DNA from: Planctomycetota bacterium
GTDB lineage: Bacteria; Planctomycetota; PUPC01; JACPCR01
Reading direction: 5' to 3'
DNA: 64,000 nucleotides
Assembly (NCBI GenBank): GCA_016179685.1
Contig: JACPCR010000061.1
Span: forward strand, 28,336 to 92,335
The position numbers and the translations under genes were made by a program. Within the stretch, counting starts at the first letter, position 1; each line of letters begins with the position of its first letter. This document shows positions 5,742-45,712 of the stretch, piece after piece. Below the pieces are notes generated by a model. It was not told where the DNA came from. It worked only from the letters and a program-made list of their open reading frames with translations, and searched no databases.

Positions 5742-8700
5742 TCATGGCATCAGCTTTTCAGGCCGGTCCGTCTGGCCCTTGCCGTCGTCTCTGTTTCCGG
5801 AATCGGGTCCCAGCTTTCCCGACGACCTCAAGGATTCCAGGTGTGAAGCGGCCTGGCGATCCCGCGCGTTGACTTTCAGAGCGGACTGGTAGCTTTCGGC
5901 CGCGTCGGAGAAACGCCCGAGCTTTTCGTAGATCAGTCCCATCCGCACGCAGGCCGGGCCGATTTCGGCCTGAGCCGCAACCGCAAGCTGTTCGAGCGCC
6001 TCGTCCGGCCGGCCCAGGTTGTCCAGCACCAGCCCGAGATTGAATCGCAGGCGGGGTCGCTCCGACTCCGTTGCCAGGGACACGGCCTTTTCCAGGAGCG
6101 GGAGCGCCTCTTCGAATCGGCCGCGCCGCACCATCAGGACGCCCAGATTCGTATGAGCCTGGGTGGAATTCGGGTCGAGCTTCAGGGCAAGCTCGAAGGC
6201 CTCGATGGCCGATTCCAATTCCGCTTCGCCCGCTGCCCCGCGTTCCGGCTGCCGGGCGACGAGCAGGACCCCGAGGTTGCAGGCCGCTTTGGCGAAGAGG
6301 TCGCTCGGGGACCCCAGGTTCTGAAGCCGGCGTCTCAGCCGCTCGGGGCCGCTCTCCTCCAGGGCCAGGATCGGGGGCAGGAGCGTCAGCAGCTCCTGGA
6401 GTGCCAGACACGCCCGATCGGTCTGTTTCGCCTCGTAGAGCCTGCCCGCGTGGTCATTGAGCAGCTCATACAGAGCCAGTAGAGCCTCCAGGTCACCGGG
6501 ATGAGCGGCCTGGGCCGCCCGCACGCGGTCGAGCGCCTTGTCCACCTTCTCCACCTTGAGCCACATCGCGCTCATGTGGAGATGCCACACGGCCTGGCGT
6601 ACCTGGGCCAAGCGCTTCATTTCCTCCTGGCCCGCGGCCCCCTCGGCCAGAATGGCAGCGACCGGCTTCATCGTCGTCTCGAATTGCAGGACAGGGTCCA
6701 GGTAGCTGCGGTACATCTGCCGCGGCATGTCGAACTCGAGCCGTGCATTGTCGTCCGTGTGGAGAAGCCCCGGGCCCGCCAAGCGCGCCGCGCCTTCGCC
6801 ATCCGTCAGGAAGTGCGCTAGTAGCGTCGCTGCATCGGCGACACCGATCAGCTCGACGTCGGCCTTGACCTGGGGCCGATCGAGCCTTGGACCCAGCTTC
6901 GCCAGGTCCACTCGAAGCGGCTGCTTCGAGCCGATCAGCAGCAAGTCCGCCGAGCTGGCATACCAGATTCCCATTTCCGGAAACACCTGATGAAAGGTGC
7001 GCAGGATCAGGTGGAACGTGGGCAGGTCGAGCTGGTAGGTCTGCAGCCACTGGCACATGATTCCATCGTCGCTGAGCCGCTCCCGGCACTTCTGCCAGAA
7101 TTCCAGGGTGAAAAGGTCGCCCACGCCGGCCATCCACGGGTTCGACGGCTCGGACGTGATGACGTCATAACGGTGATCGGTGAGGAACACGTGATTGCGG
7201 CCGTCGCCGATCAGAAGCCTCGCTGCCGGATGATTCAGGCAGTCCCCGTTGAATTCCCGGAAGAACAGGCTGACCGCTTCGGCGACCTCCGGAGAAATCT
7301 CCACGCAGTCGGCCCGGTCGGGCCCGTGGGTCAGAATGGAACCCAGGGTCATGCCGCTGCCGAGCCCGATGACCAGGACCTCGCGGGGCGACGGGTGCAG
7401 CAGGGCGGGCAGGTGGCCCAGGAGCTTCTGGGTGTTCATGTCGCCCACGGAGGTGGCATCGACCTTCCCGTTCACGGCGAGGTGAAGGACGCCGGGCGAT
7501 GATTCCTTCACCGTCACGGTGCAGGCCGTGCCGTCTCGGCTGTACCGGATGGCGCCGTGCAGCCTGGCCACTTCCTCGACGATCGCCCGCGGATCGCTTT
7601 CTGGCTTGAGCTTCATGACTCCATAGAGGAACGGGGCGCTCGTCATGGAGTGCATGTCCCAGCGCGGGAGGAGGAAGACGCAGAGGGCGGCGAGGCCGAT
7701 GACGGCCGCGGCGCGGTTCACCCGTTTGGCCAGGCCCCAGGTCCGGAAAGACAGGAGCACGATGCTGCACGCGCCGAAATTGAGGGCCGCCCCAAGGATG
7801 AGCGTGTCCTGCACCCCGAGGCCAGGCAGCCAGAGGAATCCCGCGCTCAGGGACCCCAGGATGGCGCCCAGCGTATTGACGCCGTAGACCTCCGCGGTGG
7901 ACCGTCCGAGGCTCTCCAGACGCCGCGTCCAGATGGCCGCCGTCAGGGGAAACATCGCCCCCATCAAGGACGTCGGGATCACCATCAGCCCGAAAAGATA
8001 CAGGAATTCGGTCCACTGCAGCCACCCGAAGGCGTCCCGATACCGCGCTAAGGCGGCCAGCACCCACACCGGGAGACGGCCGATGAGAAACACCATGACG
8101 AGGGTGAAGACTCCAATCCAGGCCTGGGCTGCACCGACCCAGGGGATCAACTCTCTCGTCGGGCGTATCCACGCGGCCAGAATCAGGCTGCCCAGTCCGA
8201 TCCCCAGGATGAAGGCGGTGAGCATCAGGCTGAAGGCGTAGGTGGAGGAGCCGAGGAGCAGGCTGCAGACGCGGGCGAGAGCCACCTCGTCCGCCATGGC
8301 CGCAAAGCCCGAGACGCCGAAGGCGATGAGCGAAGCCCGGGCCTCCCAGGGAGTGAAGACAACCGGCTGCTCCGGGCCCCCTGACGTCACCTCGGAATCC
8401 GCGGCCTCGGTCGCTTGCTCTGCCGGCACCTGCCTCCGGCCCAGGAAAAGAACCGCCACAAGGCCCACGGCCACGTTGACCCCCACGGCGGTCCAGACCG
8501 TGGCCTGGACGCCCAGCTTCGGGATCAGAAAGAATCCTGTCAGAACCGTCCCGGTCACCGCTCCAAAGGTGTTCAAGGCATACACGAGCGCGACGGCCCG
8601 GCCGAAACCCTCCGCTCGACGCACAAACGCCCGGAGGAGAAGCGGGAGGGTGGCCCCCATGAATGTCGTCGGGACCAGCAGGAGCAGCCCGCACGCCAGC

Positions 8701-9056
8701 GTCCTGACCAGCACCAGGGTCGCCGAGGCGCCGCCTTCCGCCTGCCGGTAGAGCGCTGCGTAGAGTGGCGTCAGAAGGTCCAGAAGTTTTGGGAGAACGA
8801 GGCAATAGAACCCCACGCCGATCTCGAGCAGGCCGTAGAGCCGGACCGGGTTGTTCCGGCGGTCGGCCATGCGGCCGCCCCAGAAGCTGCCGAGGGCGAG
8901 ACCGCCCATGAAGGCGGCGAGGACCGTGGCCGTGGCATGGACCGAATTGCCGAACACGTGGCCCAGCAGGCGGCTCCAGACGATCTCGTAGACGAGGCCG
9001 CACGCGCCCGAGAGGAAGAAACAGGCCAGCAAGAGCAGTGTTCGCCCGCGCACCAT
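5742..9056 (-). CDS. fused MFS-like membrane domain / spermidine synthase-like aminopropyltransferase / C-terminal TPR repeats
   Basis: N-terminal about 450 aa with many TM helices. Central VLVIGLGSGMT...DVITSEPSNPWMAGVGDLFTLEFW segment is a spermidine-synthase (class I SAM MTase) fold. C-terminal has repeated TPR-like helices (NLGVLLVARQ..., AHTNLGVLMVRRGRFEEA...). ATG at 9056. Confidence 0.8.
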   Translation of the reverse strand: MVRGRTLLLLACFFLSGACGLVYEIVWSRLLGHVFGNSVHATATVLAAFMGGLALGSFWGGRMADRRNNPVRLYGLLEIGVGFYCLVLPKLLDLLTPLYAALYRQAEGGASATLVLVRTLACGLLLLVPTTFMGATLPLLLRAFVRRAEGFGRAVALVYALNTFGAVTGTVLTGFFLIPKLGVQATVWTAVGVNVAVGLVAVLFLGRRQVPAEQATEAADSEVTSGGPEQPVVFTPWEARASLIAFGVSGFAAMADEVALARVCSLLLGSSTYAFSLMLTAFILGIGLGSLILAAWIRPTRELIPWVGAAQAWIGVFTLVMVFLIGRLPVWVLAALARYRDAFGWLQWTEFLYLFGLMVIPTSLMGAMFPLTAAIWTRRLESLGRSTAEVYGVNTLGAILGSLSAGFLWLPGLGVQDTLILGAALNFGACSIVLLSFRTWGLAKRVNRAAAVIGLAALCVFLLPRWDMHSMTSAPFLYGVMKLKPESDPRAIVEEVARLHGAIRYSRDGTACTVTVKESSPGVLHLAVNGKVDATSVGDMNTQKLLGHLPALLHPSPREVLVIGLGSGMTLGSILTHGPDRADCVEISPEVAEAVSLFFREFNGDCLNHPAARLLIGDGRNHVFLTDHRYDVITSEPSNPWMAGVGDLFTLEFWQKCRERLSDDGIMCQWLQTYQLDLPTFHLILRTFHQVFPEMGIWYASSADLLLIGSKQPLRVDLAKLGPRLDRPQVKADVELIGVADAATLLAHFLTDGEGAARLAGPGLLHTDDNARLEFDMPRQMYRSYLDPVLQFETTMKPVAAILAEGAAGQEEMKRLAQVRQAVWHLHMSAMWLKVEKVDKALDRVRAAQAAHPGDLEALLALYELLNDHAGRLYEAKQTDRACLALQELLTLLPPILALEESGPERLRRRLQNLGSPSDLFAKAACNLGVLLVARQPERGAAGEAELESAIEAFELALKLDPNSTQAHTNLGVLMVRRGRFEEALPLLEKAVSLATESERPRLRFNLGLVLDNLGRPDEALEQLAVAAQAEIGPACVRMGLIYEKLGRFSDAAESYQSALKVNARDRQAASHLESLRSSGKLGPDSGNRDDGKGQTDRPEKLMP

Positions 9057-9068
9057 TTACCCCCATCC

Positions 9069-9116
9069 TAGTAGACGCGTTCGCAAGTGCACCCGCACCT
9101 GCGAACACATCTACTA
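9069..9116. repeat. palindromic hairpin element, family copy 1 (12-bp inner stem, accc loop, 7-bp outer stem)
   Basis: tagtaga-cgc-gttcgcaagtgc-accc-gcacttgcgaac-aca-tctacta. Inner and outer arms are perfectly complementary. The apex AAGTGCACCCGCACTT is shared with hairpins at 39317, 45594 and 45809. Confidence 0.7.
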
Positions 9117-9144
9117 TAGGAAACCCCAGCGAAATAGGGAAGCC

Positions 9145-9203
9145 CGATATTCCATAAGTGGCCAGTTCACAAGTGGTTAAATTTGAATGACTCTTGAATT
9201 TCG
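9145..9203. repeat. conserved 59-nt intergenic block, copy A
   Basis: cgatattccataagtggccagttcacaagtggttaaatttgaatgactcttgaatttcg; 55/59 identical to 45713-45771. Internal direct repeats aagtgg x2 and ttgaat x2. Sits 150 bp upstream of the aminotransferase ATG. Confidence 0.65.
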
Positions 9204-9353
9204 ATGGGGCTTCAAGAGCGAGTCACCCTATTTGCCAGACACCTCGTCTTGCGCCGTACCGAGTGCAATCCTGCCTGCTCCCCGTACAATGCTTTTCATT
9301 GTTTCCGGCAACGCGGAAATTGTTTCCCAGCTTTCTTGGTGGCGACGTCTTCC

Positions 9354-10649
9354 ATGGGGCACCCTGCAGGAAACGGGACATCGCCGGAAACTCTCGTTTC
9401 CCGCCGTGAGATGCTCGGCGCAGCCGCGGCCACGCTCGGCCTGCTGGCAGGCGGCGGGCTGTCCTCCGCGGCCGGCGGGGAAGAAGAGGACAGCCTCGAT
9501 TCGCTCCGGGGCCCCGCCGGCGTGCTCTGGGACCGAGTTCACAAACAGTTCCGGCTTCGCGGGGGACTCGCCTACCTCAACAACGGGTCCCTCGGCCCCT
9601 GCCCCGTCCAGGTGGTTCAGGCCGCCATCCAGGCCTGGCGCTCCCTCGAAGAAAACCCGGCGGATATGGCCTACGGGCCCCTTCTCGAGAAAATGGAAGC
9701 GGCCCGGACCCGCGCCGCAGGTTTCCTCGGCTGCGCCACGGAGGAATTGGCCGTCACCGGCAATACCACAGAGGGCATGAATGCCGTCGCCCAGGGCATA
9801 CGCCTCGAAGCGGGCGACCGCATCCTCACGACGGACCAGGAACACCCCGGGGGCCTGGCTGGCTGGGGATACCGCCAGAAGCACGAGGGCGTCCCGGTGG
9901 ACCTCGCGGCCCTGCCGACACCGCCAGCGAGCCCAGAGGCCATCGTCGAATCGATCCAACGAGGCCTCACGAAGGCAACACGGGTCATCAGCGTCAGCCA
10001 CGTCACCTATACGACCGGCCTCCGCATGCCCATCGAAGCCATTGCGAGCCTGGCCCGTGCGAACGGTGCGCTCCTGGTCGTTGACGGGGCGCAGGCCCCG
10101 GGGGTGCTGGACGTCGATGTCACACGCCTGGGGTGCGACGCCTACGCCACCAGCGCGCACAAGTGGATGCTCGCGCCTAAAGGCACCGGCCTGCTCTACG
10201 TCCGAAAAGAAAGTCAGGAAAGGATCGCGCCCCTCCTCCTCCAGCACGGATACCGGTCGTATACGGCCTCGACCGGCACCCGCAACGTTCCCGCCCTCAT
10301 CGGACTCGGCGCGGCCGTCGAGTTCCTCCAGCGGCTGGGGAAAATCGACATCGAACGCCGCGCCCTGACCCTGCGCACTCATCTCTACGAGGTGCTCCAG
10401 ACCCTTCCCGGCATCCAAGTGGTCAGCCCGCCCCCGGGCGACCTCGCCTCCAGCCTCCTGACCTTCACGCTCCCCAACGGGAAACAACCGGCAGCGGTCG
10501 CCAAGACTCTGGCCGAAGAGTATGGAGTCATCGTGCGTGTCATGTCCCACGGAAACGTACAAGGCATCCGCGTTTCCACCCACATTTACAATTCAGAAGC
10601 AGATTTGGACCGGCTGGTGTCCTCACTCCGCAAGGGGCTCGGCAAGTAG
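9354..10649 (+). CDS. class V aminotransferase (PLP-dependent, cysteine desulfurase / isopenicillin-N-epimerase-like) with Tat-type signal
   Basis: Twin-arginine motif SRREMLGAAAATLGLLAGG. Class V fold motifs LNNGSLGPCP, TTDQEHPG and the SAHKWMLAPKGTGLLY lysine-containing PLP site. ATG at 9354. Confidence 0.75.
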   Translation: MGHPAGNGTSPETLVSRREMLGAAAATLGLLAGGGLSSAAGGEEEDSLDSLRGPAGVLWDRVHKQFRLRGGLAYLNNGSLGPCPVQVVQAAIQAWRSLEENPADMAYGPLLEKMEAARTRAAGFLGCATEELAVTGNTTEGMNAVAQGIRLEAGDRILTTDQEHPGGLAGWGYRQKHEGVPVDLAALPTPPASPEAIVESIQRGLTKATRVISVSHVTYTTGLRMPIEAIASLARANGALLVVDGAQAPGVLDVDVTRLGCDAYATSAHKWMLAPKGTGLLYVRKESQERIAPLLLQHGYRSYTASTGTRNVPALIGLGAAVEFLQRLGKIDIERRALTLRTHLYEVLQTLPGIQVVSPPPGDLASSLLTFTLPNGKQPAAVAKTLAEEYGVIVRVMSHGNVQGIRVSTHIYNSEADLDRLVSSLRKGLGK

Positions 10650-10695
10650 CGAAGCCATGCACCTCAGCGAAGCGCATGGTGCATGGCTTCGCTAC
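10646..10695 (+). terminator. perfect 18-bp stem-loop directly after the aminotransferase stop (no U-tract)
   Basis: gtagcgaagccatgcacc / ggtgcatggcttcgctac arms with a 14-nt loop tcagcgaagcgcat. The loop near-duplicates part of the stem, allowing an alternative pairing. Starts 1 nt upstream of the TAG stop (10647-10649), overlapping the last codons, and continues into the 3' UTR. Confidence 0.4.
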
Positions 10696-10753
10696 TCCAT
10701 GGATTGAATTTCCGAAACTGTTACCCGAGTTCGCCGGTGGGTATCGACTTGTC

Positions 10754-10774
10754 TGACACCTGACACCTGACACC
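10754..10774. repeat. (TGACACC)x3 tandem heptamer immediately upstream of CDS 10788
   Basis: tgacacc tgacacc tgacacc followed by ttttt. Ends 14 nt before the ATG at 10788. Confidence 0.8.
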
Positions 10775-10787
10775 TTTTTCTCTGAAC

Positions 10788-12167
10788 ATGTCCTGGATTG
10801 AACCCTTCTTCCCCTATCACGACTGGCGAGGGCAGGTCTGGTTCGACCTCCTGGGCATCGGTTTTCTCTGCGTGTTCTGGGATACCCGGAAGTTGTTCTC
10901 GGTCCGGAATCTCGACTTGCTGGTGCTTTGCTCCTGGATTCCGCTGGGAGAATACGAGAAGGGCCCTCTGGCCGTAACGACCCTGCTGGGGTATCTGCCC
11001 CTCCTCTACCTCTGGCCGCGGCTGCTCTGGATGCTCCTGCGTCCCCCTCCCCCGCCACCCCGGCCCAACCTGCACGATCGCGCCCTCCACGTCCTGTCTT
11101 TCGTCCTGCTGGCCTACAGCATCGGCCTCACCCTCTCGGCGCCCTTCCCCTTCGGCCGAGTGGGACAGACCCGGTGGTGTCTCTCCGAGTCCTCGATCGT
11201 CGGCGTCCTCGGGGCCGACCAGTTTCTTCAGTGCCGGCCTCCCTACGGCCACCTTGCGGCATCACAGGAACGGCCCAAGACCATCTATGCCATCTACGGG
11301 CCGTCCTATTTCCTCTCCTTCGTGCCCGGCGTCCTTGCCGCCGGCGTAGGACGGCCGTTCACGGACTGGGCCGCCGCAGCGCGCTGGACCACCATTGCCC
11401 TGCTCCTGGTATCCTTTTTTGGGCTGCGCCGATTAGGCCATCGCCTGGGAGGGCCCCGTGCCGCCGCGACCCTGGGCTTCGCCTGGTCCGTCCTCCCTTA
11501 CCTCCACTCCGCGTCGTACTGGAGCTGGACCGGCAATCTCCTCCCGGCCGCCTTCACCATCCTGGTCTTGCTCGCCTCGGCCACCCGAGAAGGCGCGGCC
11601 CTCGGCCTCTCCGTGGCCAATGCCACGGCCGCCTCCTACTACCCGGCCGCCTGGCTGGCCCTCTGGCCCCTTGGGCTGCCACGCCGCGAAAAACTGGAAT
11701 TCTGGATTTACGCCTCCTGCCTCCTCCTCCTCTTCTTCGGCCTCGCCGTCGCCCAACCCCACGGAATGGCCAGATTCTGGAGTCAGGTCAGCACCTACCT
11801 CATCCCCGGCCGAATGCCCGAATGGCGCTACCAGTGGAGTCCCTACACTTACCATCCCTGGATGCACGCCTTGCGCTATGCCGCACTCGTCGCCTTCCTC
11901 CCGGTCGTGCTCTGGACCGGGTGGCGTCTCTTTTCCCGGTCCGCCGCACCCTCCCTTCAGACCCTCGCCGCCTCATCCGCGCTGCTCGAAATTCACGCAC
12001 AACTCTTTAAAATCCATGCTCCGGGCCGAATGACCCTCTGGTCGCTCCCCTTCCTCCTCGTGCTCCTCATCCCCTGCGGGCCCGACCCAGAAGCCGGAAG
12101 TGAAGGCCTTGGAGACCCGCTCGAAGAAACTCCACCCGCTGCCCGGCCTGACCTTGAACCGAGGTAA
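10788..12167 (+). CDS. hypothetical polytopic membrane protein (possible GT-C-like)
   Basis: 459 aa with about 10 hydrophobic helices, a Pro-rich loop and a C-terminal acidic tail. No diagnostic motif. Confidence 0.55.
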   Translation: MSWIEPFFPYHDWRGQVWFDLLGIGFLCVFWDTRKLFSVRNLDLLVLCSWIPLGEYEKGPLAVTTLLGYLPLLYLWPRLLWMLLRPPPPPPRPNLHDRALHVLSFVLLAYSIGLTLSAPFPFGRVGQTRWCLSESSIVGVLGADQFLQCRPPYGHLAASQERPKTIYAIYGPSYFLSFVPGVLAAGVGRPFTDWAAAARWTTIALLLVSFFGLRRLGHRLGGPRAAATLGFAWSVLPYLHSASYWSWTGNLLPAAFTILVLLASATREGAALGLSVANATAASYYPAAWLALWPLGLPRREKLEFWIYASCLLLLFFGLAVAQPHGMARFWSQVSTYLIPGRMPEWRYQWSPYTYHPWMHALRYAALVAFLPVVLWTGWRLFSRSAAPSLQTLAASSALLEIHAQLFKIHAPGRMTLWSLPFLLVLLIPCGPDPEAGSEGLGDPLEETPPAARPDLEPR

Positions 12168-12223
12168 ACCTTCCGCCGTCCGATTGCCTCCCGGATGCTA
12201 CAACCCTACTCCAAGGAGATGCC

Positions 12224-13600
12224 ATGCAACGCATCGCTCCTGTCCTCATCCTCCTCGCCAGCACGTGCCTGGCCCCCGGTGTCCCCGCTTCCGCAGAGCC
12301 TCCGCTCAATCCACTCGCCGGCGGCGGCCGATTCGCCGGCCTCTTCCTGAGCGATGAGCTGGCCGTGGAAATCAAGGTCGCGCCCGGCGGCTATGCCGGT
12401 TCCATACGGCTGGGAGACCAGGCCTTCACGCTCAAGGCCCGCGAGGTCGGCGGGACCCTCGAAGGTGGTTTCCAGAGCCAGGGACACGATTTCTCTTTCC
12501 AGGCGACCCTGAAAGACAGGACTCTGACCTTCACGACTGAAGGCACGACTTACACGCTCCAGAAGCAAAGCTTGAACCCCTTGGCCAGGCCGGCGCAGCC
12601 CGTGCGGCCCAGGCGGGACGTGCCGCAACGACCGCCGGAACAAAGCCCAGACGGCGAGGCGCCAGGCGACGCGCCAGGCGAGGTGGAACAGGTCGCGCCG
12701 GGCGGCGTGCCGGACGAAGCGCCGGGCGAGGCCGCCCGACCCCAGGCGGACGCCGGAGAAGGTCCGCGGACGGGCAAGACCTACCGACACCCCCTGGGCT
12801 TCAGCTTCGGATACCCGGCCACCTGGAACGTTCAGGAGACGCAAGCGGGGCTGCAGCTCGTGCCACCGGACGTTGCCACGAGCGCCCAGGGCGCCCTCGA
12901 AGCTTATCTGATCATCGGCCAGCCAGCCGCAGGCATCACGAAGCCCGACGATCCCCGCGTCGTCCAGTTCTTTGACCAGCAAGTGCTCAGCTTTGCCCCT
13001 TTTCTCCAGCGGTCCCAGAAGTTCGAGGTGTTGAAGACCGGCGGCCAGGCGGCGGCCGGCTACCTCTGGGAAGGGAAGAGCCCCATCGGCGTGCAGAGTC
13101 GCATGAAGGCCTACGTGGTCATTCTCAAGGGATACGCCATCGGTCTCATCGCCGTGGGCGCTACGGAGCGCATTGAGGCTCGGGAGGGGGTCCTCAGGGA
13201 AATGTTCACCACGTTCGGCTTTGGAGAGGGCGAGAAGGACCCCCGGCTGGTCGGCGCGTGGCGCTACGAGCACTACTATTCCACCAAAGACTTTTCCTCC
13301 ACCTCCATCAAGACCACGGTGCTCCGGCCAGACGGATCGTTCAGTTCGAGCGGCCAGACCATGGCCAACGCCCAGCACCGCGACGGCGGCGGCGACCTCA
13401 CCGGCTCGACGATGCTGGACACGGGCGAGAGCGCGGGCGACCGCGGCCGCTGGGGCGCGGGCGGCAGCAAGCTGTTCCTGATCTGGGACGACGGCTCCTA
13501 TGCGGAATACCAGTACCACGTCGAAGGCCAGCCCGGCGCCCGCAACCTGCTCCTCGTCACCCCCGACGGCAAGAAACAGCTCTGGACCGAAGTGCAGTAA
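12224..13600 (+). CDS. hypothetical secreted protein
   Basis: Signal peptide MQRIAPVLILLASTCLAPGVPASA. AAGGAG RBS 8 nt upstream. A Pro/Ala/Glu-rich linker, then a globular C-terminal domain. Confidence 0.6.
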   Translation: MQRIAPVLILLASTCLAPGVPASAEPPLNPLAGGGRFAGLFLSDELAVEIKVAPGGYAGSIRLGDQAFTLKAREVGGTLEGGFQSQGHDFSFQATLKDRTLTFTTEGTTYTLQKQSLNPLARPAQPVRPRRDVPQRPPEQSPDGEAPGDAPGEVEQVAPGGVPDEAPGEAARPQADAGEGPRTGKTYRHPLGFSFGYPATWNVQETQAGLQLVPPDVATSAQGALEAYLIIGQPAAGITKPDDPRVVQFFDQQVLSFAPFLQRSQKFEVLKTGGQAAAGYLWEGKSPIGVQSRMKAYVVILKGYAIGLIAVGATERIEAREGVLREMFTTFGFGEGEKDPRLVGAWRYEHYYSTKDFSSTSIKTTVLRPDGSFSSSGQTMANAQHRDGGGDLTGSTMLDTGESAGDRGRWGAGGSKLFLIWDDGSYAEYQYHVEGQPGARNLLLVTPDGKKQLWTEVQ

Positions 13601-17862: not shown

Positions 17863-19233
17863 ATGGAAACCCTCATGTCCCTCCCAACCCTGGCCTCGGC
17901 CCTCGAATACCTCTATCGGTTCACCGATTACGAAAAGATGGGCCGCTATAAGTACTCCAGGTCCACGTTCGACCTCGAACGCATGGACCGGATGCTGGCC
18001 TGGTGCGGCCACCCGGAACGGCAGATTCCGGTGCTGGTCCACGTCGCGGGCACGAAGGGGAAGGGGAGCACGTGCGCTTACACGGCCGCGCTGACCGAGG
18101 CCTCGGGCAGCCGCACAGGCCTCTATACCTCCCCTCATCTCGAAGGAGTCCGCGAGCGCATCGTCGTCCGCGGGCAGCCGATCGGGGAGGAGGCTCTGCG
18201 GGACTTGATTGATTGGATTCGGGCCTACCTCGAGCGTCCCCAAGAGGGCCTCCCGCCCACGTTCTTCGACATTTTCACCACCATGGCCTTCCAGCATTTC
18301 CGCCAGCAGCAGTGCGGCGTCGGCGTCATCGAGGTCGGGCTCGGAGGCCGGCTCGATTCGACCAACGTCATCCTTCCCACGGTCACCGCGATCACCCCGA
18401 TCCACTATGACCACACGGACAAGCTCGGCGAGGAGCTGCACCAGATCGCTGGCGAGAAGGCGGGAATCCTGAAGCCCGGCGTCCCGGTCGTCGTCGGCAT
18501 CCAGATCGATGAGGCCGCTCGAGTCCTTCAAGACCGGATTCGGGACTTGGGCGTCCCGGCCTGGTGGCTCGGCCGGGAGGTCCGGATACGAGCCGAGCCG
18601 GGCGACGGCTGCTGTTTCGAGGTCGAGACGCCGGTCCGGCGACACCCGGGCCTGCGCCTCCGGGTGCTGGGCCGTCACCAGAGGGAGAATGCGGCCATCG
18701 CCCTGGGACTGAGCGACTGGCTCGGACAACTGAAAGAGATGCCGTTGAGCGCCCGAGCGGCGGCAGATGCTCTCGCCGCGCTGAGGCTGCCGGGCCGAAT
18801 CGAGGTCTTTGGCCGACGCCCGCCTGTCATCCTCGACAGCGCTCACAACGCCCTTTCGGCCATGGTCCTGTCCCAGACGATTCGTGAGCATTTTTCACCC
18901 CGTCGGACTTATCTTGTCCTGGGCATCGCCTCGGACAAGAACCTCCGGGCCATCCTGGAGCATCTGGCGCCGCTGGCGACTCGCATCGCGGCCACCGCCG
19001 CCCATAATTCGAGGGCGCTGCCTCCTGGGGACCTCGCCGAGCAGATCGGGAATATCTCGGCGGTACCCGTCGTCTCAATTTCTGAGCCCGCGGAGGCCCT
19101 GGCCCGGGCGCGGGACTGGGCACAGGCCGATGACCTGATTGTTGTGGCCGGCTCCTTTTACCTGGCTGGCGAGATCCGGCCCATCCTCCACCAACTGTTC
19201 CCTGAACGGGCCGAAGAGGAATACCCGACATGA
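17863..19233 (+). CDS. folC: bifunctional folylpolyglutamate synthase / dihydrofolate synthase
   Basis: Mur-ligase P-loop VHVAGTKGKGST, then TSPHL, then EVGLGGRLDSTNVI. ATG at 17863 (METLMSLP). Confidence 0.85.
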   Translation: METLMSLPTLASALEYLYRFTDYEKMGRYKYSRSTFDLERMDRMLAWCGHPERQIPVLVHVAGTKGKGSTCAYTAALTEASGSRTGLYTSPHLEGVRERIVVRGQPIGEEALRDLIDWIRAYLERPQEGLPPTFFDIFTTMAFQHFRQQQCGVGVIEVGLGGRLDSTNVILPTVTAITPIHYDHTDKLGEELHQIAGEKAGILKPGVPVVVGIQIDEAARVLQDRIRDLGVPAWWLGREVRIRAEPGDGCCFEVETPVRRHPGLRLRVLGRHQRENAAIALGLSDWLGQLKEMPLSARAAADALAALRLPGRIEVFGRRPPVILDSAHNALSAMVLSQTIREHFSPRRTYLVLGIASDKNLRAILEHLAPLATRIAATAAHNSRALPPGDLAEQIGNISAVPVVSISEPAEALARARDWAQADDLIVVAGSFYLAGEIRPILHQLFPERAEEEYPT

Positions 19234-22200
19234 AAGCACAGCGGAGCGTGCTCGTGGCCCATTACGCCGGGTTGGCGCTACTGGGTGGACTTTCCCTGGC
19301 CGCCGCGGAGTCGCTCGCTATTCCTCTGCCTGCAAACTTCGTCATCCGGGGAAACCTGGAATTCTCCGGCCGGACCGCCTCCCCGGCCCACCTGGAATTC
19401 CAGACGGGATCAAACTGCATCGTCCGGATCAGCCTGGCCAGGGATCAGGTCATCCTCGAAGCCGAGCAGCCCCCCCAGAAAACCCACCTCGGCGCGGCCC
19501 GACTGGCCAGCCCGCGCCCCAAGAAATGCACCTTCACCGTCTGCCGTGACGGCGAAGCCCTGGCCTTCCTTTCGCCCGGTTATGCAACGGGGCGGTGGCG
19601 ACTGCCCGGCCCCGAGGCGCCGGAGACGCTCCCCACGCCCGAAGTCGGCACTCGCCCAGCAGAGGAAGAAACGTGGAATCTGATCGTCCGAGAAGGCGCC
19701 GGCGTCCGCATCGCCGACCTTCGCCTCCAGCCCACTACCCCGGTGGAATTTTCGGACGATTTCATGAGATCGGACGAAGGGTCGGGAACCTGGAATCCGC
19801 TCCGGGGCCTGTGGGCTCTGGATGAGATTCCTTATCCCACCTGGAGCGCCAGCCCCTTCCGCTTGAAGGGAACGGGGCCCGGCGTGGCCCTCACCACCTC
19901 GGGTTTCTGGTTCTGGCACGATTATGCCATGCGATGCGCCGTCCGGCCGGGCGGGGACAGCCTGGGCTGCGGGATAGCGCTCTACGCCCAGGGCCCGAGC
20001 GACATGATCCTTTTCCGCTGGAAACGCCGGAATCCTCGCGAGGAGGACGAGCCGCGGCACGTCCAGGGCGCCCTCGAGCTGCTCCTTGTCCACGACGGCG
20101 AGGAAAGACTTCTGGCTTCCCAGGAAGCGTGGCTCGACCCTTCTCAGTGGTATGAGCTTGCTGCCGGCGTGTGCGAGGGCCAGGTCTGCGCCTTCGTGGA
20201 TGGAATCCGCCTGTTCCAGGTCTCCTGCCCAGAAGCGACCCTCGGCGGCATCGGGCTCTGGGCCCTTGACGGGGCCCTCTTTGATGACGTCGAGGCCAAG
20301 AGCTTCTCCCCCGGACTGCTGGCCGCCCCGAAAAACGATCCGGATGAATTCCTCGAGCGCCTCTTCGGGCACCGCCGCGTGGTCGTTGGCGAGCGATTCG
20401 CTCGCGATGCCTTGATGCAGGAATGGGCCAACGCCCAGGGAGAATGGGTGTCCCGGCCCGATCCCCGCGGGCAGCTCCTCTGGCACATCGGCCTCTTCGG
20501 GCCCCGCGTGCGACTCCGCTGGGACTGCTCGTGGAAGCCCGGCGCAATCCCGGACCCGGTCCTGTGGGCGATGACAACGGACGGCCGGGACCTCTCGAGC
20601 GGATACCTGCTGCGCCTGGGGCCTGAAACCCTGCTCCTGCGGGGGGACCGGACGCTCGGCCGCGGGACCTTGCCGGCACAGATCGAGTCCCTGGAATGGA
20701 CACGCCAGGATGGACGCCATACCCTCCGGGCCAATGGGCAGACCGTCCTTTCCGCCGAGGACGCCGAGCCTGCCGGAGCGGGAAAGGTCGGCCTCCTTCT
20801 CCCGGGCACGAGCGGGCTCATCCTGGATGCTGGCCGGCTGACGGCGGACTCTCCCGCCTGCCACGACACCACCTTCGGCACCGCACCGGTGGACTGGCGG
20901 GCCGCCGCGGGCGTGTGGGACATCACGTCCCGCTGGATTTGTACGCCGAAGTGGTCCTGGTTCGGCGGCCTCAGCCACGAGGCCGCGGTCATCTGGAGCA
21001 AACGGGCGTTCCTGGGCGACCAGGTCATCGACCTCCACAGCGCGGTCATGATGGACTTCGGGGCGGCAGGCGGATACCGCCGTCTCGGTGACATCAACCT
21101 GAGCTTCTGCGCGGACGGGGCCAGCCTGGGCAGCGGCTATACCCTCATGTATGGAGGCTTCAACAACACGAGGACATGCCTCTGGCGGCAGGGAGAGGTC
21201 GTAGCCGAGCGATCGGACCGCCTCTATCCCGACAAGAGCCGGGGCGCACACAAGAACTGGTACAACCTGCGTGCGGAGAAAATGGGACCCTCCGTCCGCT
21301 TCTACCTCGCCGATGAATTGATCCTGGAGTATCGCGATCCCCAACCCCTTCCCGGCGGCCACGTCGCCCTCTGGACCTGGGACGGCGGCATGATGATCCC
21401 TCGGGTGCGCATCTACGCCGAGTCGGAGATGACCCCGCCTCGCGAGACCCTCTTCGCCGCTCCCGACGCGTCGCCCGGCTCGGCCGACGAATACCGGAGC
21501 CGGGAGGCCCGGATACGGGATGAAACCGGCCGCGCCTGCCTCCGGTTCGTCAATCCCCAGTCCGGCGGAGATTTCTCCTCGGCCTTGCCGATCGGCGAGT
21601 TCGACGCCTTGAAGACGGGCGTCCTGTCCTTCGACTACCGGATTCCAGCGGAGGCGCGGCTGCATCTCTACCTCGAAGCGAACGGCCGCGATTTCTACGT
21701 CGCTCTCAACGGACCCGAAACGCCGTCGGAACACGCTATCCGGCAGGCGACCGAGGTCTCGGGCAGGCGCATCAACGTCTCTGCCCTCACGGGCCGCGTG
21801 CGCCGTCCCGCCCGGCTCGCCTCGCTCCCCATCTCCGCCGACGATTGCTGGCATCACGCCGAGATCGAGCTTGCAGACCTGCTGCGCCCGTTCTTCCCCA
21901 GAGCATCCGCCATCCGAGTTCGCGGCGTCCATCTTGCCAACTGGTGCAACGCGGATTACCTCATGTGCGGCCTCACCGGCAATCCCGCAGGCTGCACCCT
22001 GTTCCTGGATGATGTCCGATGCCGCCGAGGAGCATCCGCCGCGGTCGCCGGGGCCGCCGGGGCCGCGGCGGCCCCGGAGCCTTCCGATTCCTACGAGGCC
22101 GATTCCGGCCTGTGGTATCCCGCAGAGGAATCCCCACCGTTCAAGATGTTCCTGGATGCGGCCCCAGAGCGTGAACGCGAGCGCGCCCTCCGGATTGAAG

Positions 22201-23636
22201 CCGGGGCGCTCGGATTCAAGGCCGTCCTTCTGGACCGCCGCTTCGATATCCGCAGGCATCCGACCCTCTGCCTGGACTATCGCGCAGAGCAACCTCTGGG
22301 CCTCTCACTCGCTGTACGGGTCGGCGGACAGTGGCAGCCCCTCGCGGCCGCATCCGCCCTCGGACTCGCCCTCGACGGCCAGTGGCACTCCGCGCAAATC
22401 AACCTGTCGAACTGGCTCGCCCGACGAAACGCCGCCCGGTTGCCGATCATCGAGGCCATCGGCCTGGCCGCTACGCCGAAGGAAAGCCCCGAGGAGACCG
22501 CCCTTTGGGTTGATAACCTGAGCCTTCCGGCCCAGGCCTTCCCCGCAGATACAGCGCCGCCGTCCATCGTTGCACGCACGCCCGGGCCGGAAGCTGACGC
22601 CGCTGCCCAGACGATCCAGTTCGAAATCCGGGACGAGGATAGCGGGCCGGACCTCGCCTCGCTGCGCATCGAGGTCGAAGGCCGCGTCTTCGACCTCAGC
22701 CATCCGGATGCGACCTATAAGCCGCTGGCTGGCAAGGAGGCGCTGCGCGGCGGCATCTTCTCCGTCCTGCTGAGACAACCCCCTGTGGACCGGAAAAAAA
22801 TTCGCTGCGGCATCCAGGCCAGGGACCGCGCTGGGCACGACCTGCCCGCGCCCGAGGAATGGACATGGACCATGGATTACCGGCAGGACGGGCAGCCGCC
22901 GCCAGCCCCGTTCGTCTCCTACCTGCCGAGCAGGCGCATGACCTGGGACGACTTCGAGAACACCATGGGGGAATGGAGCAGCCGCTCGGGCGCAGTGATG
23001 GAGCGAACGACCGCCAGCGCCGCCACGGGCCTGCACAGCCTCGAAGTCCGAAGCGGGAGCGCCTTTGCCGTCTATACCCCCTTTGACGCCAGCAAGTTCC
23101 CCGTCGTCCGCTTCGACTATTGCCTGAAGCCCGGCGCGAGCTTCGATTGGCTCGTCCGGATCGATAACACGAACTGGCAAATCCGGTGCGGGCCTGGCCG
23201 GCCGAGGGCGGACGTCCTCTCCGTGGTCCCCGGCATCGTGAGCGACGGGCAATGGCATCGGGCCGAGTTCGACCTGCTCGCTTGCCTGGAGAAACGGCCC
23301 GACCCGGGCGTCGATTTCATCGTCGAGCACCTGGCCACGCAGCACAGGGGAAACGCCGGATGCTGGCTCGACAACTTTACCCTGAGCGCCCGAGGTGAAA
23401 CCGAGCCTTTGTTCCAGTGGTCCCGGCCGGTGGACGCGACGGGAATTCGGGGCTACAGCTTCGTGCTGGACGAATCCGCGGACACCCTTCCCGACGAGGT
23501 CCTGGATACCAAGGAAACCAGCCATGCCTTCAAAGGGTTGAAGCCCGGGTCCCATGTCCTCCACGTGCGGGCGTGCGATGGCGCGGGCAACTGGGGACCG
23601 GCTGGACACGCGCAGGTGGAGGTGGTCAGGAATTAG
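19230..23636 (+). CDS. giant secreted hypothetical protein (1468 aa) with C-terminal fibronectin-III-like domain
   Basis: Signal peptide MKAQRSVLVAHYAGLALLGGLSLAAA. Start overlaps the folC stop (ATGA). Beta-rich Trp/Gly-rich composition. C-terminal IRGYSFVLDESADTLPDE...LKPGSHVLHVRACDGAGNWG resembles fn3. Confidence 0.7.
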   Translation: MKAQRSVLVAHYAGLALLGGLSLAAAESLAIPLPANFVIRGNLEFSGRTASPAHLEFQTGSNCIVRISLARDQVILEAEQPPQKTHLGAARLASPRPKKCTFTVCRDGEALAFLSPGYATGRWRLPGPEAPETLPTPEVGTRPAEEETWNLIVREGAGVRIADLRLQPTTPVEFSDDFMRSDEGSGTWNPLRGLWALDEIPYPTWSASPFRLKGTGPGVALTTSGFWFWHDYAMRCAVRPGGDSLGCGIALYAQGPSDMILFRWKRRNPREEDEPRHVQGALELLLVHDGEERLLASQEAWLDPSQWYELAAGVCEGQVCAFVDGIRLFQVSCPEATLGGIGLWALDGALFDDVEAKSFSPGLLAAPKNDPDEFLERLFGHRRVVVGERFARDALMQEWANAQGEWVSRPDPRGQLLWHIGLFGPRVRLRWDCSWKPGAIPDPVLWAMTTDGRDLSSGYLLRLGPETLLLRGDRTLGRGTLPAQIESLEWTRQDGRHTLRANGQTVLSAEDAEPAGAGKVGLLLPGTSGLILDAGRLTADSPACHDTTFGTAPVDWRAAAGVWDITSRWICTPKWSWFGGLSHEAAVIWSKRAFLGDQVIDLHSAVMMDFGAAGGYRRLGDINLSFCADGASLGSGYTLMYGGFNNTRTCLWRQGEVVAERSDRLYPDKSRGAHKNWYNLRAEKMGPSVRFYLADELILEYRDPQPLPGGHVALWTWDGGMMIPRVRIYAESEMTPPRETLFAAPDASPGSADEYRSREARIRDETGRACLRFVNPQSGGDFSSALPIGEFDALKTGVLSFDYRIPAEARLHLYLEANGRDFYVALNGPETPSEHAIRQATEVSGRRINVSALTGRVRRPARLASLPISADDCWHHAEIELADLLRPFFPRASAIRVRGVHLANWCNADYLMCGLTGNPAGCTLFLDDVRCRRGASAAVAGAAGAAAAPEPSDSYEADSGLWYPAEESPPFKMFLDAAPERERERALRIEAGALGFKAVLLDRRFDIRRHPTLCLDYRAEQPLGLSLAVRVGGQWQPLAAASALGLALDGQWHSAQINLSNWLARRNAARLPIIEAIGLAATPKESPEETALWVDNLSLPAQAFPADTAPPSIVARTPGPEADAAAQTIQFEIRDEDSGPDLASLRIEVEGRVFDLSHPDATYKPLAGKEALRGGIFSVLLRQPPVDRKKIRCGIQARDRAGHDLPAPEEWTWTMDYRQDGQPPPAPFVSYLPSRRMTWDDFENTMGEWSSRSGAVMERTTASAATGLHSLEVRSGSAFAVYTPFDASKFPVVRFDYCLKPGASFDWLVRIDNTNWQIRCGPGRPRADVLSVVPGIVSDGQWHRAEFDLLACLEKRPDPGVDFIVEHLATQHRGNAGCWLDNFTLSARGETEPLFQWSRPVDATGIRGYSFVLDESADTLPDEVLDTKETSHAFKGLKPGSHVLHVRACDGAGNWGPAGHAQVEVVRN

Positions 23637-32410: not shown

Positions 32411-32775
32411 TTGGGTATCCTCCATGCAGGTGTTCATGCCCCATGGGCATGAGAAATCCTTCGATCCCGACGCCCGCTACGCGACGGCCCCGAGAAACTT
32501 GAATGAGACCACCATGTCCCCCTTTTTTCAACCCCCCGCACGCCAGCGAAAACGGGAAGAGCCGGGAAGCCGCGGCAGGATCCAAGAACCATCTTGAGCC
32601 AATCCTATCAAGATGGAACGGCATCGCTTCGCGATTGACATTCCGAGATTGAGAAGATACACGAGGGGCTACAGGTGTTGCGCCTCCGCAGAATCCCGCT
32701 GGGGGGCTTTTGACTCGTACGCCGGAACGGGAGGCATTGGGGCATCCCGTTCCGGCGTACGAAGGAGTTCATTTC

Positions 32776-33798
32776 ATGAAGCTCGGCCTCGGTCTTTATA
32801 CCAGCATGTTCACGGACGACAACCTCCGTTTCGCCCGTCAGCTCGGGGTGACTCATCTCGTCGCGCATCTGCCGTTCCCTCCGGGCGACGGCGTGTGGGA
32901 ATTCCTCGATATGCTTCGGCTGAAGAAGTACGCCAATTCCTTCGGTCTGGAGCTGGAGGCCTTCGAGAATTTCCATCCCGCCCATTGGCACAAAATCCTG
33001 CTGGACCTGCCCGGCAAGGAGGTCCAGATGGAAAACCTGAAAACGACGATCCGGAACATGGGCAGGGCTGGCATTCCGGTCATGGGCTACTATTTCAGCC
33101 TTGCCGGGGTCTGGGGCCACTGGCGGGCCGGCAACAACAACACGGGCGGCCGCGGAGGCGCCGGCATCAAGAGCTTCGATTACGACCTCGTCCGTGACGC
33201 TCCCTTCATCCGTCTGGGCGAGGTCTGGGGCGGCTGGAAGGTCGATGAGCATGCCACGCCCGGCACCCTCGGCGAAGTCTCCCAGGAAGTCCTCTGGGAG
33301 CGCTTCCGCTACTTTCTGGAAAACCTCGTTCCCGCCGCCGAGGAGTCTGGCGTCAGACTGGCGGCGCACCCGGACGACCCGCCCGTTCCGGTGCTGCGCG
33401 GCGTCGGCCGACTCCTCACCAGCCATGAAGGTTACAAGAGGCTGATCGAGATGAAACCGAGCCCATCGAATGCGCTCGAGTTCTGCCAGGGCACGGTCGC
33501 GGAGATGGGGCAGGACATCTACGAGGCCATCCGCTACTTCGGCTCGAGGGGAAAAATCGCCTACGTCCATTTCCGAAACGTCCGCGGGGATTTTCCGAAC
33601 CGGTTCGACGAGGTCTTTATCGACGAGGGCGACGTGGATATGGTCCGGGCGATGCGGGCCTACCAGGAGGTGGGATACGATGGGGTGTTGATCCCGGACC
33701 ACACGCCGCACGTCACCTGTCCGGCGTCCTGGCACGCCGGGATGGCCTATGCGCTCGGCTACATGCGGGCCTGCTTGCAGCACCTGGGGGCCGCGTGA
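32776..33798 (+). CDS. uxuA: D-mannonate dehydratase (UxuA family), paralog 1
   Basis: AAHPDDPPVPVLRG, GDVDMV and VLIPDHTPHV match UxuA signature regions. GAAGGAG RBS before the ATG at 32776. Confidence 0.85.
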   Translation: MKLGLGLYTSMFTDDNLRFARQLGVTHLVAHLPFPPGDGVWEFLDMLRLKKYANSFGLELEAFENFHPAHWHKILLDLPGKEVQMENLKTTIRNMGRAGIPVMGYYFSLAGVWGHWRAGNNNTGGRGGAGIKSFDYDLVRDAPFIRLGEVWGGWKVDEHATPGTLGEVSQEVLWERFRYFLENLVPAAEESGVRLAAHPDDPPVPVLRGVGRLLTSHEGYKRLIEMKPSPSNALEFCQGTVAEMGQDIYEAIRYFGSRGKIAYVHFRNVRGDFPNRFDEVFIDEGDVDMVRAMRAYQEVGYDGVLIPDHTPHVTCPASWHAGMAYALGYMRACLQHLGAA

Positions 33799-34199: not shown

Positions 34200-34327
34200 C
34201 CCGTATCCCTGTTCAGAAGCGCGGGTGCACTTCTGAACAGGGATACGAGGGAAGATGCGGCGCGGGTCCGCCCGGGGCACCCGGACTTGCAGCCTCTGAA
34301 TTTCCATCCCGTCGAAGGAGTTTACCC

Positions 34328-35350
34328 ATGAAACTGGGACTCGGCCTCTACCCGAGCATTCTGACGGACGACAACCTCAAGTTCGCCCGCCAGCTCAGCG
34401 TGACTCACATCGTCGCCTGGATGCCCCTTCCCGTGGGCAACGGCGTCTGGGAGTTCGCTGACCTGCTCCGTCTGAAGAAGTACATCAACTCTTTCGGGCT
34501 GGAGCTGGACGCCCTCGAGAATTTCCAACCTGCCCACTGGGACAAGATTCTCCTGGACCGACCCGGCAAGGAGGCGCAGATGGAGAACCTGAAGGCGACC
34601 ATCCGCAACCTGGGCAAGGTCGGCATTCCCATCATGGGTTACTATTTCAGCCTCGCGGGGGTGTGGGGGCACTGGCGGTCCGGCAGCAACAACTCGGCCG
34701 GCCGCGGCGGAGCAGGCCTGACCAGTTTCGATTACGACTTGGTGAAGGATGCTCCACTGATTCCCAAAGGCGAGGCCTGGTGCGGCTGGAAGGTGGAGGC
34801 GGACCCTGAGCCGGGCACGATCGGCGAAGTGGCCCACGCGGAGATGTGGGAGCGCCTCCGCTACTTTCTGGAGAGCCTCGTTCCCGTCGCCGAGGAGGCC
34901 GGCGTACGGCTCGCGGCGCACCCGGACGACCCGCCCGTGCCGGTGCTGCGCGGCACCGCGCGTCTTTTGACGTGCCATGAGAACTACAGGCGTCTGATCG
35001 AGATGAAGCCGAGCCCGTCGAACGCGCTCGAGTTCTGCCAGGGAACCGTCGCGGAGATGGGGCAAGACACCTACGAGGCCATCCGCTACTTCGGCTCAAG
35101 AAAGAAAATCGCTTACGTCCACTTCCGCAACGTCCGCGGGGACTTCCCGAACCGGTTCGACGAGGTCTTCATCGACGAGGGCGACGTGGACATGGTCCTG
35201 GCGATGCGGGCCTATCTGGAGGTGGGATACGATGGGGTGCTGATCCCGGACCATTCGCCGCACGTGACCTGTCAGTCGCCCTGGCACGCCGGGATGGCCT
35301 ACGCCCTCGGCTACATGCGGGCCTGCATGCAGTTCCTGGGCGTGAAATGA
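34328..35350 (+). CDS. uxuA: D-mannonate dehydratase (UxuA family), paralog 2
   Basis: About 80% amino-acid identity to 32776-33798 with the same RBS. The C-terminal 150 codons are nearly identical at nucleotide level. Confidence 0.85.
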   Translation: MKLGLGLYPSILTDDNLKFARQLSVTHIVAWMPLPVGNGVWEFADLLRLKKYINSFGLELDALENFQPAHWDKILLDRPGKEAQMENLKATIRNLGKVGIPIMGYYFSLAGVWGHWRSGSNNSAGRGGAGLTSFDYDLVKDAPLIPKGEAWCGWKVEADPEPGTIGEVAHAEMWERLRYFLESLVPVAEEAGVRLAAHPDDPPVPVLRGTARLLTCHENYRRLIEMKPSPSNALEFCQGTVAEMGQDTYEAIRYFGSRKKIAYVHFRNVRGDFPNRFDEVFIDEGDVDMVLAMRAYLEVGYDGVLIPDHSPHVTCQSPWHAGMAYALGYMRACMQFLGVK

Positions 35351-38511: not shown

Positions 38512-38622
38512 TCGCGGGGCACCCTTTCCGGTGTATGGAATACCGCACCGTTCAGGACCATGCGGGAATTGGCAAAGTTCCGATAGAGGGACCGTTCATC
38601 AGACTTGTGAGGCGCGATCAGC

Positions 38623-42425: not shown

Positions 42426-42547
42426 CGCGGTTTCGTGGCGATATCCGGAATTTCAATCGCGTGGCTCATCATGAAAGCACAGGGGGGCGGGGAGCAGACC
42501 TCCGCCTTCATCAATCAGGACTCGCCGCCAGCAACCGTCTCGTGTCT

Positions 42548-44092: not shown

Positions 44093-44478
44093 GGAGTCCG
44101 GCGCTACAGTCTAAGGGTGTAACTTCTCCGCGCCCGCTAGCGCGGGCACCCGGCGGAGAAGTTGAAAGGTGTCAGTTGATTCCTGAACCCTGACACCTTT
44201 TCCAGCCTTGTTCGGTTGCGGGCCTCGCCCGCCTTAGGCACTTGGGACGCCAAACTTGGAAACTTTTTTCGATCTGCGCCGCTTCGCGAATGATCTTTGC
44301 CGGGTTTAGAAGGTTCGGCTTTTTGCCATGGATCGCAGATCCCGCCGGGATGGCAAATCTGAAATCCGCGAGCCCAAAGGAGAAATGCCGCCGCCCTTCG
44401 GGCGTCTGCATTTCTTGTGAAATCCGCTTGCCGGCGGATTTCAACAAAAACTTCTGCGGACCCGCCAGGGGCGGCGGG

Positions 44479-45593: not shown

Positions 45594-45639
45594 AGCAGAC
45601 GAGTTAGCAAGTGCACCCGCACTTGCTAACTCGTCTGCT
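45594..45639. repeat. palindromic hairpin element, family copy 3 (perfect 21-bp stem, accc loop, followed by TTTT)
   Basis: agcagacgagttagcaagtgc-accc-gcacttgctaactcgtctgct, then tttgg. Relative to copy 1 the stem carries a compensatory C:G to A:T change (ttCgc/gcGaa versus ttAgc/gcTaa). Confidence 0.75.
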
Positions 45640-45712
45640 TTTGGAAACCCCTCCCTCCCGTAGGGATTCCGCTGGGAAACGGGAGCACTGCGGGAGGCGA
45701 AACAAGAAAACT

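Follow-up and report, generated by a model that had tools for sequence, protein, structure and literature searches.

A candidate composite palindromic repeat in two divergent intergenic regions of an uncultured planctomycete

A 59-nt block conserved between two intergenic regions of an uncultured planctomycete is the best-kept portion of a longer, non-coding and hairpin-rich repeat. We consider it about evenly likely that this repeat is a lineage-specific, non-coding composite palindromic element of the REP, BIME, MITE and IS200/IS605-miniature kind, and the most probable identity of the unit is a small DNA repeat, selfish or neutral, rather than a shared gene switch. A preliminary description of the block had offered three options, namely a shared promoter/operator module, a small-RNA gene or a miniature mobile element. 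The miniature mobile element fits best, the promoter/operator module is unsupported and the small-RNA gene falls in between.

Results

The block occurs at 9145-9203 (copy A) and 45713-45771 (copy B) of the window, the whole 64-kb stretch of DNA that was analysed. Both sites are exact matches to the degenerate pattern, both lie on the + strand and their identity is 55/59, as previously stated; the degenerate 59-mer had no match in 100 dinucleotide-preserving shuffles, and none is expected by chance. The description of the block was correct but too narrow, as the homology exceeds 59 nt. Read from 5' to 3', the unit consists of a 44-48-nt family hairpin, GGAAACCCC, a 75-nt AT-rich core and GGGGYTTC(C). 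The core (GCGAAAY...TTTCG; 9129-9203 in copy A and 45697-45771 in copy B, both on the + strand) contains the 59-mer and is identical at 66 of 75 positions between the copies. The hairpin-plus-linker stretch agrees at 46 of 55 positions, and GGGGYTTC(C) lies 3' of the core at 9206-9213 in copy A and at 45796-45804 in copy B. The flanking DNA of the two copies is unrelated. This organization, a single homologous unit that runs from the hairpin through linker and core to the closing stem between unrelated flanks, agrees with the hairpin-plus-block unit that had been suggested. A search of the 64-kb window with nhmmer and a covariance model returned no third copy.

The core has a GC content of 37-41%, compared with 64% for the 64-kb window. 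Nine substitutions separate the cores of copies A and B, and eight of them are transitions. Within the last 38 nt of the core only 1 of 38 positions differs, compared with 18 of 100 in the remaining unit (Fisher p = 0.024, post hoc). The better conservation of this 38-mer, the nearly invariant 3' half of the core (TTCACAAGTGGTTAAATTKGAATGACTCTTGAATTTCG, one difference between the copies), hints at what may be a constrained site. A longer duplicated coding segment that contains the block had been named as a result that would speak against the readings offered. The duplicated unit is indeed longer, but it is non-coding: there are stops in most frames, the substitutions lack codon periodicity, and the ORFs that begin at a shared ATG within the block (9187 and 45755) diverge directly after it.

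Each block is preceded on its 5' side by a family hairpin, as had been noted. In copy A this hairpin (H1A, 9069-9116, + strand) carries GTAG at the foot of a 22-bp stem that contains three mismatches, and its apex reads AAGTGC-ACCC-GCAC. It ends 29 nt short of the block, and on its other side the - strand MFS/spermidine-synthase gene has its start codon (9056) at a distance of 12 nt. The hairpin of copy B (H1B, 45594-45639, + strand) has a perfect 21-bp stem with the loop ACCC and ends 73 nt before the block. GGAAACCCC follows each upstream hairpin after a gap of 2-3 nt. The shared linker first written as ggaaacccc...taggga is therefore only partly common to the copies: GGAAACCCC is shared, but the 'taggga' positions are non-homologous and in copy B fall inside an insertion. 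The second family hairpin reported downstream in copy B was found at 45808-45855 (H2B, + strand), with the apex AAGTGC-CCCC-GCAA and a loop that is C-rich on the same strand as that of H1B. The internal direct repeats described for the block (AAGTGG twice and TTGAAT twice) are both intact in copy A, but in copy B they are degenerate (AAGTGA/AAGTGG and TGGAAT/TTGAAT).

GGAAACCCC and GGGGTTTCC are reverse complements, as are CGAAA and TTTCG, so that an outer and an inner stem enclose the core. In copy A, the outer stem is formed by GGAAACCCC at 9119-9127 and GGGGCTTC at 9206-9213 (both + strand), which pair at 8 of 9 positions with one mismatch that reads A.C on the + strand and G.U on the - strand; within it, the 5' CGAAAT of the core pairs with its 3' ATTTCG, and the core carries an internal hairpin, CCATAAGTGGCCAGTTCACAAGTGG, at 9152-9176 (+). 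Copy B has the same plan with longer arms. Its 5' arm (45643-45696, +) consists of GGAAACCCC and, next to it, a 44-45-nt extension that copy A lacks, its internal core hairpin lies at 45720-45744 (+), and its 3' arm (45772-45804, +) consists of a 22-24-nt extension (CCTCCC..GAATCCCTGC..GGA) followed by GGGGTTTCC. The outer GGAAACCCC/GGGGTTTCC pairing spans 12 bp in this copy, and the two insertions (44 nt in the 5' arm and 22 nt in the 3' arm) pair mutually through TCC/GGA, GTAGGGATTC/GAATCCCTGC and GGGAGG/CCTCCC. As a consequence of this mutual pairing, a 166-nt stretch of copy B folds stably (-73 kcal/mol, z = -6.1 versus shuffles). Copy A adopts the same closed shape but folds no better than its shuffles (z = -0.9 on the + strand and -1.95 on the - strand).

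The small hairpin of the core, CCAUAAGUGRCCARUUCACAAGUGG, has an apex (AAGTGA-CCAAT-TCAC) that resembles the family apex AAGTGC-ACCC-GCAC. In an alignment of the two copies 98% of the proposed pair cells form. This two-copy alignment contains no compensatory double change at aligned pairs and a single pair that alternates between G-U and A-U, so the fold rests on pairing capacity and matched arm lengths and not on covariation.

These folding properties bear on an alternative that we regard as unlikely, although of some weight, in which the unit acts as a structured RNA. It would represent either two paralogous small RNAs or a 5' leader common to the leftward genes, with a conserved single-stranded core closed by the stems GGAAACCCC/GGGGYUUCC and CGAAA/UUUCG. 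The 3' half of this core would serve as a seed or protein-binding site. The same closed architecture in both copies despite the difference in stem length, the mutual complementarity of the additional arm segments in copy B, the pairing-preserving G-U to A-U substitution in the internal hairpin and the unusual conservation of the last 38 nt of the core are all consistent with such an RNA. The absence of compensatory double changes at aligned positions and the unexceptional fold of copy A argue against it. Evidence from G-U pairs as to the transcribed strand is contradictory as well, since the internal hairpin favours the + strand while the outer stem of copy A favours the - strand. No Rfam family matches the unit at gathering thresholds, with only noise at E<10, and a search for trans targets complementary to the conserved 3' half of the core returned none beyond the two copies themselves. 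The 6S-like and CsrB-like RNAs were ruled out, given the missing Rfam match and the location of the GGA motifs within stems.

The closed geometry also raises the distinctly improbable alternative that only the 64-75-nt core is mobile, as a very small element, its ends imperfect (CGAAAY..AAG / CTTGAATTTCG), that enters pre-existing palindromes beside REP-like hairpins precisely at their centre. The core does lie at the dyad centre in both copies (copy A, CCCCAG|ATGGGG; copy B, GGGAGG|CCTCCC), conservation is highest in the core whereas palindrome length varies, and insertion sequences that target REPs are documented (PMC3333891, PMC1525189). However, any stem-closed loop mimics an insertion at a palindrome centre, and the geometry does not discriminate between the two. 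In addition, the outer GGAAACCCC and the upstream hairpin are themselves homologous (the 46/55 stretch above), which makes two independent insertions less parsimonious, and no target duplication accompanies the core.

The hairpins that accompany the two copies belong to a larger family. Five members were observed in the 64-kb window against 0.49 expected, starting at 9069, 34202 (inverted), 39317, 45594 and 45808, each 44-48 nt long and near-perfect with a 20-22-bp stem. The apex AAGTGC-NCCC-GCA is conserved, and the lower stems are variable with compensating changes; two compensatory pair changes separate H1A from H1B. The closest relative of H2B is the hairpin at 39317-39360, which is 91% identical to it over 35 nt. 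Two members, H1A and the 39317 hairpin, carry GTAG at the foot and a third, H1B, carries GCAG (GYAG), in each case within the paired stem; no GTAG/GYAG tag was seen in H2B or the 34202 hairpin. This set of hairpins is likely a REP-like family of the genome.

The two solo members of the family lie away from the block. The hairpin at 39317-39360 (+ strand) occupies the convergent junction of an isochorismatase and a HEAT/WD40 gene. The isochorismatase-family ORF (38611-39363, +) reads through this entire hairpin to its stop codon and overlaps the stop of the convergent HEAT/WD40 gene (39360). The last ~15 codons of the isochorismatase-family gene seem either to have received the hairpin as an insertion or to be supplied by it. 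The second solo hairpin, in the opposite orientation (34202-34247, - strand), is associated with two tandem UxuA-like (mannonate dehydratase family) paralogues (32776-33798 and 34328-35350) that are 80% identical. Each paralogue is preceded by a long hairpin, the first by one with a different apex (32715-32762, 13 nt before the ATG) and the second by the 34202-34247 family member, 80 nt before its ATG. A perfect 19-bp hairpin with a 14-nt loop (AGTAGCGAAGCCATGCACC...GGTGCATGGCTTCGCTACT, 10645-10696) starts at the stop of the aminotransferase gene downstream of copy A and carries GTAG at its foot; it may represent a second palindromic repeat family or a terminator.

Copy A lies between an MFS/spermidine-synthase/TPR fusion gene (5742-9056, - strand) and a class-V aminotransferase gene (9354-10649, + strand), the product of which likely carries a Tat signal. 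The neighbours of copy B are gpsA (44479-45480, - strand) on the left and an HpcH/HpaI aldolase gene (46321-47103, + strand) on the right. Both copies are indeed upstream of + strand genes, as had been observed, but they are equally upstream of - strand genes, since both intergenic regions are divergent, and the copies share the same orientation within them. Of the 19 gaps in the window, only about 3 are of the divergent type, so the placement of both copies in such gaps is mildly non-random (roughly p = 0.02, post hoc).

This placement is in favour of a DNA-level promoter or operator, a proposal that we consider very improbable; the divergent gene pairs would be controlled together by a regulator or nucleoid protein bound to the block. 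The AT-rich character of the block within a GC-rich genome and the short direct repeats of copy A are in keeping with it. However, no sigma-70-like hexamer pair was found in the block on either strand, and comparison by eye with sigma-54, ECF and Bacteroidetes-type promoter consensus patterns, as had been recommended, revealed none of these. The distances from the block to the neighbouring start codons are inconsistent (151 nt in copy A and 550 nt in copy B for the + strand genes; 88 nt and 232 nt for the - strand genes), each pair of direct repeats has a degenerate member in copy B, and the repeats are spaced irregularly and differently between the pairs (15 and 11-12 bp start to start). Furthermore, the motifs are not enriched in the other intergenic regions of the window, and the genes that flank the two copies are functionally unrelated, with no obvious common pathway. 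Inspection of the block by eye detected no IHF, DnaA-box, parS or dif pattern, and neither block contains an intrinsic terminator.

The genomic context also returns to the structured-RNA alternative. When read on the - strand, both copies present the same order of core, hairpin, a 12-14-nt stretch with a Shine-Dalgarno-like run between hairpin and start, and a start codon, which is the ATG of the MFS gene in copy A and the TTG of a 15-codon ORF upstream of gpsA in copy B. A sigma-70-like - strand promoter predicted at 45911-45884 would place all of copy B in the leader of gpsA. These features favour transcribed leaders, but no promoter or terminator was found around copy A, and the neighbouring genes are functionally unrelated. 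The suggested small-RNA gene has a low probability. The unit folds well, but neither copy is delimited by a promoter-like site or a U-tailed terminator, and an Rfam match, covariation and a homologue outside the genome are lacking. A riboswitch-like leader is likewise at variance with the missing covariation and Rfam match, with the unrelated genes and with the absence of the unit upstream of orthologous gpsA.

Additional sequence features were observed in and around the two intergenic regions. At 45883-45891, TACTATAAT includes an exact TATAAT on the + strand, with the aldolase gene 430 nt further downstream, and on the - strand provides the TATAGT of the predicted TTGACC-16-TATAGT promoter facing gpsA; it may be a bidirectional promoter core. 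Five GGAAAC/GTTTCC motifs lie within 100 nt at 9301-9401, which covers the end of the copy A intergenic region and the first aminotransferase codons. They include the palindrome GGAAAC-TCTC-GTTTCC, and two 10-mers of this region match the 5' extension of copy B, but no convincing link of the cluster to the element was established. Beyond the aminotransferase gene, a tandem repeat, (CTGACAC)x3, occupies 10752-10776 just upstream of the ORF that starts at 10788. This ORF (10788-13600) and those at 19206-23636, 49252-54336 and 59515-62787 are large (up to 1,694 aa) and have no Pfam domain, as is the case for two adjacent paralogues (54845-56452 and 56383-57618) that are 46% identical. These large ORFs and the paralogue pair are lineage-specific proteins with no assigned function.

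Searches for the element in other sequence collections gave no convincing relative. Patterns of 19-25 nt from the core had either chance matches in AT-rich DNA or none among GTDB genomes and JGI metagenomes, a scan of IMG/VR viral contigs with the core pattern found no match, and BLASTN against plasmids and phages was equally negative. In ~94 kb of related planctomycete loci, neither the block nor the hairpin apex nor GGAAACCCC occurs. In the data scanned, the element thus appears lineage-specific and restricted to this uncultured planctomycete. The lack of a homologue in relatives, even upstream of orthologous gpsA, weighs against a conserved structured RNA.

Relatives of the neighbouring genes were compared for synteny. 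The nearest homologues of the aminotransferase are at most 60% identical and non-syntenic. Relatives with a GpsA that is 68-72% identical keep the order gpsA-DUF2851-HEAT/WD40, and in these relatives gpsA is preceded by other genes within a co-directional methyltransferase-YdjY-gpsA operon with gaps of 3-37 nt. The methyltransferase and YdjY genes are absent from the window. Because gpsA of the relatives lies in such a tight co-directional operon, copy B sits exactly at a synteny break. This location and the absence of the unit from the sampled relatives are in line with the mobile element that had been suggested. The gpsA-DUF2851-HEAT/WD40 block of the window (39360-45480) adjoins family hairpins at both ends (39317 and 45594), and its ancestral downstream neighbours, a 382-aa protein and a TPR protein, are missing here. 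As both block ends adjoin hairpins and ancestral neighbours are missing, the family hairpins mark rearrangement junctions.

Several Logan assemblies contain the same organism with identical sequence. Their contigs (k=31) run straight through copy A. At copy B, contigs stop at 45625 (the same contig in three samples), and three contigs, which come from at least three runs, begin again at 45746; these two positions bracket the left part of the copy. In a de Bruijn graph, such breaks would be explained if 45596-45775, from H1B through the core plus 4 nt, were repeated elsewhere, or if 45626-45745 were polymorphic. This evidence for copy B is no more than suggestive, because other reproducible contig ends (10676 and 44428) fall in unrelated hairpins (10645-10696 and 44411-44450). 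The coincidence of contig ends with hairpins suggests repeated or polymorphic sequence there.

The two copies are direct repeats 36.5 kb apart, and the possibility that they represent attL and attR of a 36.5-kb island was rejected. The interval between them consists of housekeeping and metabolic genes, including the syntenic gpsA block, and it shows no integrase, no tRNA and a flat GC content.

Discussion

The unit is best explained as a composite palindromic repeat with two parts. The first would be a REP-like hairpin that belongs to a family of at least five members in the window, and the second a larger palindrome (GGAAACCCC...GGGGYTTCC) centred on the 75-nt AT-rich core with its own small hairpin. 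The unit would have been copied as a block between sites, either by hairpin-dependent single-strand transposition with an HUH/Y1-transposase encoded elsewhere or by recombination, and would then have drifted, leaving the nine core substitutions (eight transitions). Transcripts of the leftward genes probably include it in their 5' leaders, where it would form stable hairpins. An effect on the neighbouring genes, if any, would be a by-product, such as RNA stability or insulation, and not the action of a dedicated switch.

Several observations do not fit a simple selfish repeat. The known copies number only two, both from the 64-kb window, and neither has a direct repeat at either candidate boundary that would represent a target-site duplication. 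Pfam scans of the window ORFs detected no Y1 transposase, TnpA or TnpB. Both copies occupy divergent, promoter-bearing gaps in the same orientation, which is unusual for REP-type repeats, and the paired arm extensions of copy B are more easily explained by selection on an RNA or single-stranded DNA fold than by drift. The unusual conservation of the 38-nt segment belongs to the same list. It is because of these points that the structured-RNA reading stays alive. More specifically, we regard as quite doubtful, though worth stating, that a new family of functional folded nucleic acids, restricted to an uncultured planctomycete lineage, is represented by the unit. It would then be a pair of regulatory small RNAs or leader RNAs with the 38-nt 3' half as active site, or a guide- or scaffold-like non-coding remnant of a hairpin-dependent (HUH or IS110-like) element that targets palindrome centres.

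Should the composite palindromic repeat be the correct reading, a barely sampled planctomycete lineage would add one such element to the catalogue of REP-, BIME- and MITE-like repeats, and repeats of this type would be seen to sit at strand-switch and synteny-break points. Such a result would be useful for annotation and for the analysis of genome rearrangement, and it would not be surprising. Its importance would be greater if a folded RNA or a recombinase recognition site underlies the co-varying arm lengths and the nearly invariant 38 nt, since the element would then give access to regulation or mobility, both little known in this phylum.

In comparison with known repeat systems, the unit can be filed in general as an interspersed palindromic repeat, and it is not a strict member of any of the named families compared. 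Miniature elements derived from IS200/IS605 include the PATEs, which carry subterminal hairpins at both ends. Like these miniatures, copy B is bounded by two hairpins of the same family on the same strand (apex AAGTGC-NCCC-GCA), its outer edges have neither inverted terminal repeats nor duplications, and the internal core hairpin resembles the family apex. Unlike them, copy A has no right hairpin, the left flanks share no conserved target tetranucleotide (..CATCC versus ..CGCCG) and no TnpA or TnpB domain was found in the window. Nested-palindrome MITEs, such as ERIC/IRU and the Correia elements, resemble the unit in their size (~95-160 bp), in the capacity of the whole element to fold into one long imperfect hairpin, in the occurrence of length variants through internal insertions or deletions and in likely co-transcription with neighbouring genes. 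The pairing of GGAAACCCC with GGGGTTTCC provides the terminal inverted repeats of a MITE. The unit differs from these elements in that no flanking target-site duplication was found, two copies rather than many are known in the window, the central 60-75 nt are non-palindromic and the unit is linked to a separate hairpin family.

REP hairpins resemble those of IS200/IS605 elements (PMC3333891), and REPs as well as repeats linked to tyrosine transposases have been reported in Planctomycetes (R. baltica), while composites of REPs with unrelated stem-loop repeats are known in Pseudomonas (PMC3733652). GTAG-tagged REPs and REPINs are mobilised by RAYT (Y1/HUH) transposases (PMC3733652, PMC2817692). 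REP stems span 5-13 bp, REP subfamilies carry alternative complementary stem residues, and REP-type repeats favour convergent or co-directional gaps (PMC3733652). The hairpin family described here shares with GTAG-tagged REPs a conserved part, subfamilies with compensating stem changes and GTAG/GYAG at 3 of 5 hairpin feet. It differs in three respects: GTAG is paired in the stem rather than unpaired, stem length is roughly double, and the window showed no RAYT gene.

The BIME-1/RIP (RIB) elements of E. coli consist of REP hairpins that flank a conserved L linker, often with an IHF site (PMC3333891). Several differences separate the unit from these mosaics. Its hairpins measure 44-48 nt and not 20-40 nt; unlike the inverse hairpins of BIMEs and REPINs, H1B and H2B have the same orientation (loops ACCC and CCCC, C-rich on the + strand), and copy A has one hairpin; the linker is enclosed by nested stems; and the copies lie in divergent promoter regions, not at operon 3' ends, and in a different phylum. 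Inspection of the unit gave no clean match to the IHF consensus WATCAANNNNTTR, the best candidate (TCACAAGTGGTTA) agreeing at 7 of 9 positions. The likeness lies in the mosaic of palindromic REP-like hairpins with a well-conserved non-palindromic linker, in the extragenic and interspersed location, and in copy B, which reads as hairpin, conserved AT-rich core, hairpin. By this comparison, the unit appears most like the BIME-1/RIP mosaics (PMC3333891) and the nested-palindrome MITEs in its working.
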